From positions 21,184-85,183 of the forward strand of contig CALRHL010000001.1 of the NCBI GenBank assembly GCA_943359455.1: a DNA stretch of 64,000 nt. The letters run 5' to 3'. The notes under the pieces were generated by a model. That model had not been told where the DNA came from and did not search any database. It saw nothing but the letters and a program-made list of their open reading frames with translations. The stretch is from Candidatus Uhrbacteria bacterium RIFOXYB12_FULL_58_10 (lineage in GTDB: Bacteria; Patescibacteriota; Patescibacteriia; UBA9934; GWF2-40-263). Made by a program: the position numbers and the translations under genes. Shown here piece by piece: positions 6,344 through 29,200 of the stretch (position 1 is the first letter of the stretch; each line of letters opens with the position of its first letter).

Positions 6344-6418
6344 GGCCCCATCGTCTAATGGTTAGGACACGGGCTTTTCAAGCCTGTAACCGGAGTTCGA
6401 CTCTCCGTGGGGTCACCA
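6344..6418 (+). tRNA. tRNA-Glu(TTC)
   Basis: cloverleaf folded by hand: acceptor GGCCCCA/TGGGGTC, anticodon stem CGGGC/GCCTG, loop TTTTCAA, T-loop TTCGACT, encoded CCA. Confidence 0.85.
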
Positions 6419-7056
6419 AACTACAATCAACGTCGTCTTCCGACGCGCACAGCTCCCTGAACGGGGAGTTTTGCGTTATATGGATGATTTTTCCGCCCTT
6501 TACCGTGAGGTTCGTGAGCAGTTTTCGCATGATGTAGTCGAGGTCGGCCATGCTGTCTATTTTTCGCGCAAGGTTGGCGATGTTTCGGAATAGTTCGACA
6601 AATTCTTCCATGCTGGCCATGGCGTCAGTCGAGGCCTCCTTCACCTTCTTGAGCGTTTTGATTTTCTCGGCGAGTTCCAGCGACGCGGCCACGTCTTTCT
6701 GCACGTCGCGTTTGAACTCGCGCCGCAGGTCGGCGTCGGTCTCCCCGCGCAGCAGCTCCTTGTTTTCCTCCCGTCGCCTGTCGGTGCTGTTTTTACGCGC
6801 CACGAGCGATTTGAGCTCGTCCTTCGCCTCCTTCGCGCGTTCCACGGCTAGCCGCTTCATCTCCTCGACGTAGTGTGCGTATCCGGCCTTCGTACCCAGG
6901 GGATGCCTGTCCAAAAATGCGTAGACGGCTTCGAGCACCGCCTTCGCCCGCACCTCTTCCTTCCCGCAATTTGGCTGCTTGCAATCGAAATAGTAGTAAT
7001 GGGTTTTCGTCCCGTCCTTTTTTGGTTTGGCGGTGATGCTCGGGTACATCGGCTTC
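6378..7056 (-). pseudogene. C-terminal fragment of a large serine recombinase (zinc-ribbon plus coiled-coil region only); N-terminal catalytic domain missing, truncated by the IS insertion; 3' end overlaps tRNA-Glu
   Basis: THYYYFDCKQPNCGKEE zinc-ribbon-like motif followed by charged coiled coil; no resolvase catalytic domain; reading frame runs into the IS left terminal repeat; local GC clearly higher than neighbouring DNA. Confidence 0.5.
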
Positions 7057-8021
7057 TGAACCGTACCCCAAAAAGTGGACACGAAAGTGTCCGTTTTTTG
7101 TGTCTATAGATAATTCAACTAAGATGAATGGGTATGAGTAATCGAAGATTCACTGAAGAAGAGATGGAGGTGCTGTCACAACACATGTACGTGCGGAGAT
7201 GTAGCGAGAAATCTGTAACGTACACCAAGGAATTTAAACTGTTTGCCGTCAGGCAATACAACGAAGTATTTCTTCGAGGGAAGGCCAAATATGGTTGGAG
7301 GACGATTCAGATGAAACTTCTGGAAAAAGAGGTCGTCATGAATCACAAAAAGATCATTCGCATTAAGAATAAGTATCATCTCGTCACCAAGATCCGAAGG
7401 CACAACCCGTACAAGATGATTATGAAGAAATCGCTGGAACATCGTACGTATGAAAACATATTGAATCGTGCCTTTGACGTCCTTACTCCTTTCAAGATAT
7501 TTACCACCGACATCACCTATATCCCGCTCAATTACCGTTTTGCCTACCTGTCCGTCGTGAAGGATGTCGCAAGCGGCGAAGTCGTGGCCTGGAACCTGTC
7601 TATGCATCTGGAAATGAGCCTGGTGCTCGATACCGTGGAGGCTATGAAGAATAACCCGGTTCTCACTCCAGTCATGCTTCAAGACGTACTGATTCATTCC
7701 GACCAAGGTTTCCACTACACCAACCCGCTCTATATCGAGAAGATCAAAGGATTGCAGATGGTTCAATCTATGTCGAGACGTGGCAATTGCATCGACAATG
7801 CGCCTATTGAATCGTTCTTTGGACATCTAAAAGACGACGTGGACTACAAAGACTGCAAGACTTTCGACGAACTTCATTCACTCATCTCAAATTACATGCA
7901 ATACTACAACAATGAACGCCAGCAGTGGGGACGAAAAAAGATGACTCCTGTGGGATACAGAAATCATCTTTTAACAACTGCGTAGGTTTTTACCAGTGTC
8001 TACTTTACGGGGTACGGTTCA
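7057..8021 (+). mobile_element. IS3-family-like insertion sequence (~965 bp) with 26-bp imperfect terminal inverted repeats tgaaccgtaccccaaaaagtggacac / tgaaccgtaccccgtaaagtagacac; no clear target-site duplication
   Basis: terminal repeats read directly; encloses a single transposase ORF; left end carries hairpin plus T-run. Confidence 0.7.
7128..7985 (+). CDS. IS3-family transposase (HTH plus DDE/rve integrase core in a single ORF)
   Basis: HSDQGFHYT and SRRGNCIDNAPIESFFGHLK motifs of the IS3 OrfB integrase core. Confidence 0.85.
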   Translation: MGMSNRRFTEEEMEVLSQHMYVRRCSEKSVTYTKEFKLFAVRQYNEVFLRGKAKYGWRTIQMKLLEKEVVMNHKKIIRIKNKYHLVTKIRRHNPYKMIMKKSLEHRTYENILNRAFDVLTPFKIFTTDITYIPLNYRFAYLSVVKDVASGEVVAWNLSMHLEMSLVLDTVEAMKNNPVLTPVMLQDVLIHSDQGFHYTNPLYIEKIKGLQMVQSMSRRGNCIDNAPIESFFGHLKDDVDYKDCKTFDELHSLISNYMQYYNNERQQWGRKKMTPVGYRNHLLTTA

Positions 8022-17233: not shown

Positions 17234-17268
17234 AAAACAGTCCGACTTCTCGTCGGACTGTTTTATTT
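17234..17268. terminator. bidirectional intrinsic terminator
   Basis: aaaacagtccgac-ttctc-gtcggactgtttt with flanking A/T runs. Confidence 0.6.
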
Positions 17269-19622: not shown

Positions 19623-19982
19623 TTACACCTCTGACCGAAGTTCAAGACCGCGGATTCCTTTAAAATCCTTCGTATTTCTAGTGACTAATGGAAAACCGCA
19701 TTCAATGGCTGTTCCCGCAATTAATAAATCAACAACCCGACCACGTTTTGTTCGTGCAATCTTTGCAGCTCGATCTGCAATTACTTCTGTAATCGGAATC
19801 ACATCACAAGATCGTATTAACAATAAAAGAAGGGCCTCCTCATCTTTTGATAAACCAGGATATCGTAATGCCTCAAAAACCGATAAAGCAGAAATGGCAA
19901 CGGAACCAGGAATAAACGAAAATGCTGGCATTGCCGCAATGTGCAAGATTAAAATATTTGTATCAACGAGAACGCGCGTCAT
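19623..19982 (-). CDS. vapC: PIN-domain toxin VapC
   Basis: VLVDTNIL ... TRNTKDF acidic PIN motifs; 4-nt overlap with the upstream small gene. Confidence 0.7.
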   Translation of the reverse strand: MTRVLVDTNILILHIAAMPAFSFIPGSVAISALSVFEALRYPGLSKDEEALLLLLIRSCDVIPITEVIADRAAKIARTKRGRVVDLLIAGTAIECGFPLVTRNTKDFKGIRGLELRSEV

Positions 19983-20176
19983 ACTGACTTCCAAGAACCC
20001 CGTGAACGTTCTATTGCACGCAAAAGAACAAATGCTCGTTGTTTCGAAATCTTTCCTGCGGTCTCAGACCATACATCACGAGACGTTCGCTTTGAGCGGT
20101 TAGATACCACGTGTTGATGCAAACCAATCATTTGTTCTAATTTTGTGACCCTTTGTTCAAGTATTTTTACAGTCAT
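19979..20176 (-). CDS. putative antitoxin (VapB-position small protein, family unclear)
   Basis: 65 aa, ATGA overlap with vapC; no recognisable RHH/AbrB fold. Confidence 0.4.
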   Translation of the reverse strand: MTVKILEQRVTKLEQMIGLHQHVVSNRSKRTSRDVWSETAGKISKQRAFVLLRAIERSRGSWKSV

Positions 20177-20223
20177 ATATCTATATAATACCAAATCGAA
20201 TCCTCTTGTCGAGTCATCGTTGT

Positions 20224-21440: not shown

Positions 21441-21603
21441 AGACCTGTTGCTGTATAAGCTCCAGCCAAAAACGTCATATTTCGCCAAACTCTCGGTAAA
21501 ATATTTTTGGCTTAGCTTAGGCTAAACAAAAAATATTTTACCGTCGACTTTGTCTGAAATCTGCCATTTTGGATCAAGGATCTTATACAGCAACAGATCT
21601 ATT
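21441..21603. repeat. ~160-bp element with 23-bp imperfect terminal inverted repeats (agacctgttgctgtataagctcc / ggatcttatacagcaacagatct), an internal 14-bp inverted repeat (ggtaaaatattttt/aaaaatattttacc) and a possible 3-bp ATT flanking duplication
   Basis: read directly; overlaps the 3' end of hicA. Confidence 0.4.
21509..21525. repeat. AGGCTTAAGGC-like repeat copy (ggcttagcttaggctaa) in the loop of the element above
   Basis: read directly. Confidence 0.3.
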
Positions 21604-21801
21604 TTTCGTCACACCAAGTATCCGTAAATTATTCAAAATGATAAACGGCGGTAGTGGGTCGTACTGAGGGACAACAAGGGGTCGTTTCAAACCGGCCTTG
21701 ATGTAAATACGATGGTCGCCCTTCATTCGTCTGAATGAGCACCCGTGTTCAATCAAAAATTTTTCAAAAATTCGCCAATCAACCGCGCCCAAATCTCCCA
21801 T
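21583..21801 (-). CDS. hicA: HicA-family mRNA interferase toxin
   Basis: RRMKGDHRIYIKAGLKRPLVVPQYDPLPPFIILNNLRILGV resembles the YcfA/HicA KGSH motif region. Confidence 0.65.
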   Translation of the reverse strand: MGDLGAVDWRIFEKFLIEHGCSFRRMKGDHRIYIKAGLKRPLVVPQYDPLPPFIILNNLRILGVTKNRSVAV

Positions 21802-21807
21802 AATATT

Positions 21808-22095
21808 TTAAGCCGTACATGGCACCATCACATTCACAACAGCCTGCTCAACGACTTCTGGAGGACTGAATTGCCCTTTTGCCTTCGTCCATCCCAGATC
21901 TTTGAGGACTGCATCTATACTATTCGTTTCCATCAACTCTTCAAAAAAAATCTGTACCGCTTCGCCAAACATTCTCTTGGCGTCTTGTTCTGATGACCCG
22001 CATGAAGATAAATCTAATGCTGGGGAGTATGCAACAAATGCCACTCCTTCGCGAAAAATGGTGACGGGAAGACCGCAAGAAATCGATTGATCCAT
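21808..22095 (-). CDS. hicB: HicB-family antitoxin
   Basis: PVTIFREGVAFVAYSPALDLSSCGSSEQDAKRMFGEAVQIFFEEL matches the UPF0150/HicB fold pattern; immediately upstream of hicA. Confidence 0.6.
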   Translation of the reverse strand: MDQSISCGLPVTIFREGVAFVAYSPALDLSSCGSSEQDAKRMFGEAVQIFFEELMETNSIDAVLKDLGWTKAKGQFSPPEVVEQAVVNVMVPCTA

Positions 22096-22143
22096 ATTAC
22101 GGTGACTTTACCAAATTCGCTGATATTTTTCAATAGTAACGTT

Positions 22144-22187
22144 GTAGATACTATTAAAGGTTACCGTAGCTCTCCGTGTAGATACTA
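22144..22187. promoter_or_regulatory. direct repeats gtagatacta x2 with an embedded ggttaccg/cggtaac inverted repeat upstream of hicB; candidate operator
   Basis: read directly. Confidence 0.25.
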
Positions 22188-22211: not shown

Positions 22212-22267
22212 TGAACCGTACCCCAAAAAACGGACACTGTCGTGTCCACTTTTTGGGGTACGGTTCA
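22212..22267. repeat. 56-bp near-perfect palindrome made of two inverted copies of the terminal repeat of the IS at 7057..8021 (miniature IS-end element)
   Basis: right half is the exact reverse complement of the 26-bp left terminal repeat of the IS; left half differs at 2-3 positions; 4-nt spacer tgtc. Confidence 0.6.
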
Positions 22268-22303
22268 ACTTCACATCGGACTGTTTTGTGACTCTGACTG
22301 AGA

Positions 22304-26227
<3,924 letters not shown>

Positions 26228-26231
26228 ATGA

Positions 26232-29200
26232 TTATTTAATCTTCTTCTCTCCTGACAACTCGACCTTTTTACCATCCTTCATGAGTTCGACATCGAGACA
26301 CAGACCCTTCAACTCACGGATGAGCACATTAAATGATTCTGGAATGTTTACTTTGCGAATCGGTTCGCCTTTGATAATGGATTCATACGCTTTTGAACGC
26401 CCGACGATATCATCAGATTTGATCGTAAGGATTTCCTGCAACATGTGCGCGGCACCGTACGCTTCGAGTGCCCATACTTCCATTTCTCCAAAACGCTGTC
26501 CTCCAAACTGTGCACGTCCACCAAGCGGTTGCTGGGTGATGAGCGAGTACGGACCGATTGAACGTTGGTGAATTTTGTCTTCAACCATGTGTGAAAGTTT
26601 GAGCACGTACATGTATCCAACGGTAATCTGGTGGCCAAACTTTTCTCCGGTACGACCATCGAACAATGTCGACTGTGCACTCTTGTTGAATCCAGCACGT
26701 TCGAGCTCTCCATGAATCTGAGATTCTTTTACTCCATTCAAGACAGGAGTCGCCGCGCGATACCCAAGAGCATTTGCCGCAAGTCCAAGGTGAACTTCCA
26801 AAATCTGACCAAGGTTCATACGTGATACCACACCAAGAGGAGTGAGAATCACGTCGGCTGGTGTTCCGTCTTCCAAAAACGGCATATCTTCGACTGGCAC
26901 GAGTTTGGAAATAACACCTTTGTTTCCATGGCGTCCGGCAACCTTGTCACCAACCTGAATCTTGCGCATGTCTGCAACCGAAACTTGAATTTGTTTAATC
27001 ACGCCTGGATTAAGTTTGTCACCCGCTTCACGTGAAAACATTTTAATATCCACGACTTTTCCATGCTCACCATGTTCGAGATACAACGAAGAATCACGTA
27101 CATCACGTGCCTTTTCTCCGAAAATAGCACGAAGCAATTTTTCTTCGGCAGACAATTCCGTTTCTCCTTTCGGCGTAATCTTTCCAACGAGAATATCACC
27201 AGATTTTACCTCTGCTCCAATGCGAATGATCCCTTCAGAATCGAGGTTCTTCAACTTGTCTTCCGAAACGTTTGGAATGTCTGAGGTGACAATTTCCGGA
27301 CCAAGTTTTGTATCACGAACATCGATCATGTAGTTTTCAATATGCACCGAAGTATAGCGATCATCATGAACCAACCGTTCGCTCATAATAACGGCATCTT
27401 CAAAGTTATAGCCGTCCCAGCTCATAAACGCGACGAGTACGTTTTGACCGAGCGCCATTTCTCCTTTATCGACCGCAGACGAGTCAGCGATAACTCCACC
27501 ACGTTTAACCTGATCGCCAGGCATGACCACAGGACGCTGGTTGATACAGGTCGAATTGTTTGAACGTAAAAACTTTTTCAGCTCGTATTGGAAGACGTTA
27601 TTTTGTTTGTCTGTCACGTGAATCATCCCGCCATCGATTTTCGAAATCACTCCATCTTGCTCGGCAACAATCACATGTCCAGAATCTTTTGCGGCACGAT
27701 ATTCAATACCAGTTCCGACAATTGGTGCGTCTGGTTTAATCGTTGGCACCGCCTGACGTTGCATGTTCGTTCCCATGAGCGCGCGCGTGGCGTCGTCATG
27801 CTCCAAAAATGGAATGAGCGCGGTGCCGATCGAAACGATTTGTCGGCTCGACACATCCATATAATCTACTTCATTTTGGGTCACCACTTTTGGCTCACCA
27901 AATTTTCGACCACCAACCATATCATCTACCAAGTATCCTTCTTCATCGACTTTCACCGTTGCTGGAATCGTAACCGAACGCTCTTCTTTGAAGGCGTTAA
28001 TATATACAATTTCATCTGTCACGCGTGCTCGTTCCTTTCCGTCTTTCATCTCCTTGATGACCTTTCGATACGGCGTTTCAATAAACCCGTAGTCGTTGAT
28101 AACTGCGTAAGAAGAAAGATGGGCCACGAGACCGATGTTTGGTCCTTCTGGGGTGGCGATTGGACAGATACGACCATAGTGCGTTGGATGCACGTCGCGT
28201 ACTTCAAACCCAGCGCGTTCGCGAGAAAGCCCACCTGGACCCATCGCGGAAAGACGACGTTTGTGCTCGAGCTCTGAAAGCGGGTTGGTCTGATCCATGA
28301 ACTGAGAAAGCTGAGACGACATGAAAAACTCACGCACCGCACCAATCACGGGACGTGCGTTAATGAGACGACCTGGAGACAACGTTTCCATGTCGAGCGT
28401 CGACATACGATCTTTAATGATGCGCTCCATGCGAGCAAGACCAACGCGGAAACGACCCTGAATCAGTTCGCCAACCGCGCGCACACGTCGGTTTCCGAGG
28501 TGATCAACGTCATCTGGTTCTTCTTGGGTAATGTTGAGACGAATGACCTCCTTAATAATGTGAACGAGATCTTCTTTTGTAATAATGCGATTTTCTTCTG
28601 GAGCAACATGTTCGTCCGTTGTATCTAAATTGAAACGTAAGTTGAATTTATAGCGTCCAACTTTTCCAAGATCATAACGATCGAAGTTGAAAAACATCGA
28701 GTGGATAAGTCCACGTGCGTTGTCAGGAGTTGCGAGATCGCCTGGACGAATACGTTTGTAAACTTCCGTGAGACCTTCCTCCTCGTTTTTTGCCGCATCT
28801 TTTGCAATGGTCGCTTCGATGTAGTGGTTGGTTGGATGCGTATCAACATCTTTAAACAACGCAAGAATTTCCTCGTCGGTGTGATATCCAAATGCACGCA
28901 TGAGGGATGTAACGGCCACTTTACGCTTACGATCGATCTTCACCCAAATAACATTTTTTGGATCCGTTTCAAATTCCAACCATGCGCCACGGTTCGGAAT
29001 AATTTTTGCTCCGTAGTAGCGACGACCACGATAAACTTCTCCGGTGAAAAACGCTCCCGCTGAACGTACGAGCTGTGCGACAATGACCCGCTCGATGCCG
29101 TTGATGATAAACGTTCCGCGAGGCGTCATGATCGGAAGGTCACCAAGATAAATTTCCTGCTCCTTTGTGACGCTTGTGCGTTTATTCACGAGACGTGTTT

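Follow-up and report, generated by a model that had tools for sequence, protein, structure and literature searches.

The 56-bp palindrome that lies 36 nt (22268-22303) beyond the rpoC stop codon in the window (the whole 64-kb stretch of DNA analysed) is shown by sequence comparison to be a miniature element without coding capacity that derives from the IS3-family IS lineage resident in the host Candidatus Uhrbacteria genome and is composed of the left terminal repeat of the IS (IRL), the native hairpin loop of the IS left end, and an arm complementary to IRL (Table 1). The best explanation overall, and one that we hold to be quite probable, is a miniature IS derivative that probably arose by collapse in place, would later have had its distal flank replaced, and may at present have a terminator role.

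Table 1. Features of the palindrome, of its surroundings, and of the resident IS (positions in the window)
Feature	Position	Strand	Description
IS3-family element (resident IS), 965 bp	7057..8021	+	probably defective copy, ~456-bp internal deletion
IS left end	7057..7100	+	IRL 7057-7082, loop GAAA 7083-7086, descending arm GTGTCCGTTTTTTG 7087-7100
IRR of resident IS	7996..8021	-	3 mismatches to IRL; outer 13 nt identical
56-bp palindrome	22212..22267	.	assigned as miniature IS derivative; two IRL-type arms + 4-nt loop, no coding capacity
Left arm	22212..22237	+	2 differences from IRL (AC in place of GT); complement GTGTCCGTTTTTTG = descending arm of the IS left-end hairpin
Inner terminator-like hairpin	22225..22249	-	GUGGACAC-GACA-GUGUCCGU, two G.U pairs, then Us
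Right arm	22242..22267	-	26/26 identical to IRL of resident IS (7057-7082)
Proximal flank	22268..22290	-	CACAAAACAGTCCGATGTGAAGT (rpoC sense); A-tract + stem-like arm; resembles left half of relatives' terminators
rpoC (RNA polymerase beta' subunit)	22304..26275	-	TAG at 22304-22306

The palindrome and the resident IS

The palindrome has a 26+4+26 layout in which the arms are 92% complementary and flank the spacer TGTC, and in the rpoC sense it reads TGAACCGTACCCCAAAAAGTGGACAC-GACA-GTGTCCGTTTTTTG-GGGTACGGTTCA. At ≤3 mismatches the 26-mer TGAACCGTACCCCAAAAAGTGGACAC occurs four times in the 64-kb window, namely at IRL (no mismatch), at IRR (three), and in the right (none) and left (two) palindrome arms, while 100 shuffles gave no match, and a window search with the terminal 13-mer found it only at the same four places, all of them IS ends or palindrome arms. 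These counts bear out the preliminary description, in which a 56-bp palindrome with a 4-nt spacer was said to be built from the terminal repeats of the resident IS, its right half being the exact reverse complement of the 26-bp left terminal repeat (26/26) and its left half differing at only 2-3 positions (two mismatches to IRL). The reverse complement of the palindrome corresponds to IS positions 1-44 (43/44, with one loop change, GAAA to GACA) followed by 12 terminal nt, GGGTACGGTTCA, and its arms mismatch at the two places where the IS left-end hairpin does as well, both being G.U wobbles in the rpoC sense. Apart from the IS and the palindrome of the window, none of ~100 fetched loci has the GTGTCCGT variant, and this shared variant together with the 43/44 left-end match indicates that the palindrome descends from the IS lineage of the window. 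The IS left end is on this match the predicted 44-nt template of the palindrome, and it carries a terminator-like hairpin that appears conserved in the IS group; the hairpin comprises 14 bp (IRL positions 13-26, the GAAA loop, and the descending arm), and the palindrome extends it to the terminus. The element is small and non-coding, as a MITE is (56 bp, with no ORF possible), and its terminal inverted repeats match those of an autonomous IS (26/26 and 24/26 against IRL; 43/44 against the left end); the single copy in the window has no target duplication, its flanks being ...CGTATG and ACTTCA....

The resident element had been called IS3-like, and this identity stands, the parent being a genuine member of the IS3 family by NF033516 scores, domains, and TG...CA ends; the view of the element is amended in that the copy in the window is probably defective, its internal deletion fusing OrfA residues ~1-49 to OrfB residues ~34-277 (ORF 7128-7985; 285 aa). 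A complete copy of 1421 bp (L014) encodes an OrfA with HTH_Tnp_2 and an OrfB with HTH_21, rve, and rve_2; against NF033516, whose cutoff is 160, this OrfB reaches 263 bits and the fused ORF of the window 210 bits. Full-length copies measure 1.39-1.42 kb and have the ends TGAACC...GGTTCA, which are imperfect inverted repeats ending in TG...CA, and transposase, ends, and duplications all agree with the IS3 family, whose elements transpose by a copy-out-paste-in route via a double-stranded circle. No target duplication borders the resident IS. A minus-strand ORF (6378-7082; 234 aa), for which no Pfam match was found, starts inside its IRL, and the resident IS has probably truncated this gene.

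Across the IS group the left end has the shape of a bidirectional terminator, A5-GTGGACAC-GAAA-GTGTCCAC-T5. Pairing in the hairpin is retained in 95% of cells over 10 distinct IS left ends, compared with 38-62% in slid controls. Covariation among these 10 left ends was not significant, as 85 of 500 shuffles reached the observed score, and the one-sided changes, read in the transposase sense, comprise eight G.U and two A.C, an excess that is suggestive only.

Sites occupied by IS copies and palindromes

The flanks of full-length IS copies are terminator-like. The 1392-bp IS in L082 lies after lepA between AAAACAGGCTTAA and TAATGCCTGTTTT with the duplication TAA, the copy in L084 lies after a superoxide dismutase gene between AAAAACCAGGCTTA and ATAGCCTGGTTTTTT, and the 1399-bp IS in L092 lies between AAAAAGCGGCTATT and ATTTGCCGCTTTT with the duplication ATT. 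An A-run is situated 6-25 nt upstream in 21 of 26 IS left flanks and in 19% of controls. Together the flanks and the excess of A-runs argue that the IS group targets the loops of intrinsic terminators, and in loci other than that of the window its insertion into A-tract/stem/T-tract terminator loops with 3-4 bp duplications is shown. In the loci encoding P0150 (L082-L091), all four flank combinations of two IS sites occur across assemblies (L082, L083, L084, and L086), the left flank being lepA or sod and the right flank being either a 137/138-aa ORF with recJ or a 243-aa ORF. Such mixed flanks have two readings, namely that IS copies truly recombined or mediated an inversion, or that assemblers joined sequences through the 1.4-kb repeat; genuine recombination of this sort is known to generate IS copies that lack target duplications (PMC11708052). 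Among 139 ends, no flanks common to an IS-occupied and a palindrome-occupied site were found.

When one genome per species was searched for the IR pattern, 29 loci in 16 MAGs were returned, mostly of Patescibacteria, and many of the matches sit at the ends of contigs, as a repeated IS would lead one to expect; the locus of the window itself was not returned, which places the host species outside the GTDB-representative collection. Solo palindromes were recovered from 40 metagenome contigs (L040-L079) and one MAG (L006); they measure 56-59 bp, in most cases 56, have TGA(A/T)C(C/T) as termini, and gave 32 non-redundant sites outside the window, or 33 with the window copy. Exact target duplications of 3-4 bp are present at 14 of the 32 (P ~2e-17), and at 16 of the 32 the flanks form a hairpin (stem of at least 5 bp) whose loop holds the junction, compared with 8.1% of control positions (P ~6e-10). 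At 23/32 sites (24/33 including the window copy) the element is bordered by an A-run and, on its opposite side, by a T-run, typical examples being AAAAAAATCCCGCGGATA/element/ATATATCCGCGGGATTTTTT (L044) and AAAAACACCGCTCTGA/element/CTGATAGCGGGTTTTTTT (L062), and a crude ORF analysis places the 3' end of a gene within ~130 nt at roughly 19/33 sites. The loop is GAAA in 18/32 palindromes, as it is in 7/10 aligned IS left ends.

Neither the metagenome scan nor the genome scan ever found a second palindrome in any one contig or MAG, and none was present in the MAGs with 2-4 matched IS ends (CAZHUL01, LSNS01, JAHISC01, JAYSSH01, CBDUWM01, and JAUVLY01) or in viral contigs; Rfam holds no matching family and gave only sub-threshold matches to generic miRNA-precursor hairpins. 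Identical 56-bp elements occupy different sites in L065/68, L073, L078, and L079, with L068 and L079 originating from one sample, and these fit mobilisation equally well as formation in place. In L048, L067, and L075, near-identical terminators, AAACACCCCAAC...GTTGGGGTGTTT, contain the same palindrome variant (loop ATAA) at differing loop positions and in differing orientations, which points to independent insertions at the same or paralogous sites. A divergent 59-bp palindrome (TGGTAT...ACATCA, with a 7-nt loop) lies directly after tRNA-Arg(TCG) in L069 (3329-3461), not in a terminator loop. A Clostridiales MAG (L005 7067-7172 and L026 ~3215) contains 3.3 tandem copies of a 32-bp unit with the IR-like motif TGAACCGTACCCCG.AAA.TGGACAC, arranged unlike IS ends or palindromes.

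The 3' end of rpoC and the origin of the palindrome

The closest rpoC proteins belong to Candidatus Uhrbacteria and other Patescibacteria (best identity 92%), and the exact rpoC protein of the host is absent from the record. In each of five close relatives with 89-92% rpoC identity (L034, L036/37, L039, L080, and L081) the rpoC stop is followed after 6-35 nt by a canonical terminator, in an A-tract/stem/loop/stem/T-tract form such as CAAAGACGAGGTC-CGTT-GACCTCGTCTTTGTTTTG, and none of the five has a palindrome after rpoC. The comparison with related genomes for an empty site that the preliminary description had proposed yielded a conserved terminator in five relatives and no clean empty site, since the downstream genes differ. 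In the window the proximal flank (22268-22290) is presumed to be a remnant of the target rpoC terminator, which when intact would presumably have read CAAAACAGTCCGATGTG...CACATCGGACTGTTTTG. No matching right half and no target duplication are found on the distal side of the palindrome, the joined flanks give no terminator fold (z = +1.3), and the presumed other half CACATCGGACTGTTTTG was not found beside another IS end in the window, where only a 3-mismatch match occurs at 17249. Gene order downstream of rpoC differs from that of every close relative, and the palindrome marks a rearrangement breakpoint. Between it and the HD_4 gene lie a 95-aa ORF and hicA (21583-22095, minus strand), which are absent from the closest relatives and are preceded by a promoter-like site (22133-22105) whose -10 is of the extended type. 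Two copies of the 11-nt sequence TGTAGATACTA, in direct orientation and at a distance of 34 nt (22143-22153 and 22177-22187), could form an operator. A further toxin-antitoxin-like pair, consisting of a 65-aa ORF and a PIN-domain protein, is found between a CBS-domain gene and yebC (19623-20194; L030 4708-5261) and is absent from the relative L080, and the rpoC-ruvC interval seems to accumulate cassettes of this type.

Within the palindrome, the inner 8-bp stem GUGGACAC/GUGUCCGU starts 54 nt past the rpoC TAG and in the rpoC sense is directly followed by UUUUU, giving six consecutive Us in total, and this U6 lies inside the descending arm. The earlier remark that no U-run follows is correct for the full 26-bp stem, after which there is none, and has to be withdrawn for the inner 8-bp stem, directly after which U6 is found. 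The inner hairpin has a predicted free energy of ~ -10.4 kcal/mol (Vienna MFE, which pairs the inner 6 bp only) and the full 26-bp stem one of -43.7 kcal/mol; the rpoC terminators of the relatives, at -14 to -25 kcal/mol, are stronger than the inner hairpin. In sequence terms the inner hairpin has the make-up of an intrinsic terminator, with a stem-loop, an immediate U-tract, and a position 3' of the stop, although a weaker one than those of the relatives. A consensus terminator scan flagged only the plus-strand version (22232-22247) and probably misses the minus-strand hairpin since its maximal-stem rule extends the stem through A:U pairs; it identified no other terminator-like site on the minus strand in the 209 nt between rpoC and the next gene. 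The inner 8-bp stem and U6 probably end the rpoC transcript, whose 3' end may gain stability from the full 26-bp stem.

A plausible course of events begins with a full IS that would have landed in the rpoC terminator, a step argued solely from the resemblance of one flank and from the terminators in relatives. In IS copies of the L082 type, IRR and IRL are perfectly complementary over 26 bp, and the left-end hairpin arm GTGTTCACTTTTT and the inner IRR GTGTCCACTTTTT form direct repeats of 13-14 bp. A deletion from one repeat to the other, by strand slippage or recombination, would remove the whole IS interior and leave IRL-GAAA-IRR' in register, that is, a 56-bp palindrome formed in place. Deletion between direct repeats would explain why the GAAA loop dominates, why the architecture is constant, why duplications are retained, and why the window IS and the palindrome have a private variant in common, and the low copy number also fits formation in place, because there are never two palindromes per contig or MAG and none in MAGs with 2-4 IS ends. 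The preliminary description had already raised a miniature IS derivative made by internal deletion, a proposal strengthened by the 44-nt left-end match with its lineage-specific variant and by the 32 recurrent sites. In the resident IS the IRR matches the hairpin arm at only 10/14 positions, the window does not contain the precise copy from which the deletion would have arisen, and no site was found with a full IS in one sample and a palindrome in another. Fold-back (snap-back) synthesis at the left-end hairpin would give the same product and was set aside as less parsimonious than deletion between 13-14 bp repeats. The distal flank would later have been replaced, for example through recombination between IS copies or the arrival of the hicA toxin-antitoxin cassette, a replacement in which the right half of the earlier rpoC terminator would have disappeared along with the target duplication.

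We give some preference to the formation of the window palindrome in place by collapse of a full IS, and transposition of the window copy as a 56-bp unit is less likely than in-place deletion. A truly mobile MITE, transposed as such a unit into the rpoC terminator and mobilised in trans by an IS3-family transposase, would account for the 3-4 bp duplications at 14/32 sites, for the choice of the same terminator-loop targets as the IS, for identical elements at different sites and in different samples, two of them in one sample (L068 and L079), and for the similar AAACACCCCAAC...GTTGGGGTGTTT terminators hit at different loop positions and orientations (L048, L067, and L075); each arm is, moreover, a complete transposase-binding repeat. 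Collapse of IS insertions in place yields all of this evidence as well, and the maximum of one copy per contig or MAG and the absence from IS-rich MAGs speak against a mobile element. A double-stranded circle of ~59 bp would be extremely strained, so that an element of 56-59 bp could hardly form the circle of the IS3 type, and the private 2-nt variant that the window copy has in common with the resident IS hairpin points to a recent birth from the resident IS; a mobile MITE is regarded as rather unlikely. Still more speculative, and in our judgement distinctly improbable, is the proposal that an IS3-family transposase lineage of Patescibacteria reads DNA structure (extruded or single-stranded terminator loops) and not sequence and actively mobilises the 56-bp palindromes via a hairpin or cruciform, and that the host reuses these elements, built as they are like bidirectional terminators, to replace the terminators of essential genes, rpoC for instance; if true, structure-based mobilisation would be a route other than the canonical double-stranded circle.

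The palindrome could also be a neutral IS-derived scar that has no part in rpoC expression, with termination occurring elsewhere (Rho-dependent, or after read-through into the toxin-antitoxin genes), as might be supposed from an inner hairpin of just -10.4 kcal/mol with two G.U pairs, from the lack of a U-run after the full 26-bp stem, and from a consensus scan that called no minus-strand terminator. Against this, 5/5 close relatives keep a canonical terminator at the same position, the 209 nt before the next gene contain no other candidate and that gene has its own promoter-like site (22133-22105), and U6 directly follows the inner stem, as in bidirectional terminators; a neutral scar has a real chance of being correct, but falls somewhat short of an even one. 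For a host-evolved REP-like or regulatory palindrome that merely resembles IS ends, the extragenic, palindromic nature of the element and its place at the 3' end of a gene, like that of REPs, might be cited. The 43/44 match to the IS left end including the private variant effectively refutes such an origin, the palindrome has no GTAG/CGTC head and a low copy number and is absent from close relatives, and a non-systematic look noticed no Y1 (RAYT-type) transposase near the 26-mer copies examined, leaving this origin with very little probability. The possibility that the 26-mer is a REP-like motif unrelated to IS ends, which the preliminary description had itself raised, is contradicted by its distribution: outside the window the motif is widespread, but as IS3-family ends or as IS-derived, target-duplicated palindromes, with the L005/L026 array as the exception. 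Lowest in probability, to the point of being scarcely credible, is a footprint of abutted ends (a circle junction) or an assembly artefact, either of which might be suspected when only 4 nt separate two IS ends, palindromes being liable to arise in assembly. In a circle junction, likewise mentioned in the preliminary description, the termini of IRR and IRL meet across a spacer of 3-4 nt with TG/CA at the center, whereas in the palindrome the TG/CA termini are outermost and point outward and the inner repeat ends face the spacer. An artefact is contradicted by identical palindrome sequences in two independent assemblies of the host species, from NCBI (GCA_943354615.1, L030) and ENA (ERZ27280327, L031), by the mid-contig position with unique flanks, and by 41 analogous loci.

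Genomes of Patescibacteria are tiny and densely packed with genes, the intergenic regions being very short, and finding a landing place that does not kill the host is therefore a real constraint on a transposon. The IS group appears to ease this constraint both by inserting into terminator loops and by bringing its own left-end terminator-like hairpin, and the 56-bp collapse products suggest that an IS insertion is reducible to a harmless and possibly useful hairpin. The case would exemplify structure-directed targeting by an IS3-family transposase and miniaturisation of an IS to its bare ends through direct repeats, as well as a possible replacement of the terminator in an essential operon (rpoBC) by mobile-element DNA.

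Relation to known elements

IS-derived miniature elements are of a known kind, and the 56-bp palindromes and the terminator targeting of this IS group appear to be undescribed; literature searches by sequence string or by keywords (MITEs in CPR, IS3-family terminator targeting) returned nothing specific, with subscription journals and ISfinder outside their coverage. Class C group II introns are retroelements that insert just after intrinsic terminators and recognise the terminator stem as single-stranded DNA. Like the present IS they use terminators as safe-haven targets, and unlike it they insert after the hairpin and not in the loop. IS1397, ISKpn1, and ISPsy8 are not known to leave palindromes made of IRs only. 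These three elements resemble the present IS in their IS3-family OrfA/OrfB and in their extragenic hairpin targets (PMC1525189), but they target REP units, whereas the present IS targets generic terminators without a conserved stem sequence. IS1272/TnSha1, of the IS1182 family, similarly have terminator hairpins as targets and little primary-sequence specificity, but they possess a transposase of another family and cut the stem, with partial deletion of the target and no duplication (PMC4923244), in contrast to the loop insertion with 3-4 bp duplications of the present IS.

Among small repeats, REPs and REPINs associated with RAYT are, like the palindrome, extragenic elements at the 3' ends of genes and may act in termination or in the stability of mRNA (PMC2817692, PMC3116915). 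The palindrome differs from them in that its parent has a DDE transposase of the IS3 type and not a Y1 enzyme, in that it starts with TGAACC in place of a GTAG/CGTC head, and in that it is not high-copy, its terminal 13-mer occurring four times in 64 kb and always as IS or palindrome. SPRITE is, like the palindrome, a small interspersed repeat that resembles a Rho-independent terminator and could terminate transcription, but is without an identified parent IS (PMC10969869), whereas the palindrome has a parent IS, IS-type termini, and a very low copy number. Bacterial MITEs such as Correia/CREE, RUP, and MITEPsy share with the palindrome a non-coding, IS-derived nature, retained terminal repeats, an intergenic location, a stable RNA/DNA hairpin, and target duplications at the family level (PMC10969869, PMC3184786). 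The palindrome is unlike these MITEs in being only 56 bp long, without internal sequence and with just two IRL-type arms and the IS hairpin loop, in occurring apparently once per genome where MITEs number tens to hundreds, and in having a host among the Patescibacteria (CPR), and it may be a recurrent product of deletion in place that was not mobilised in trans.
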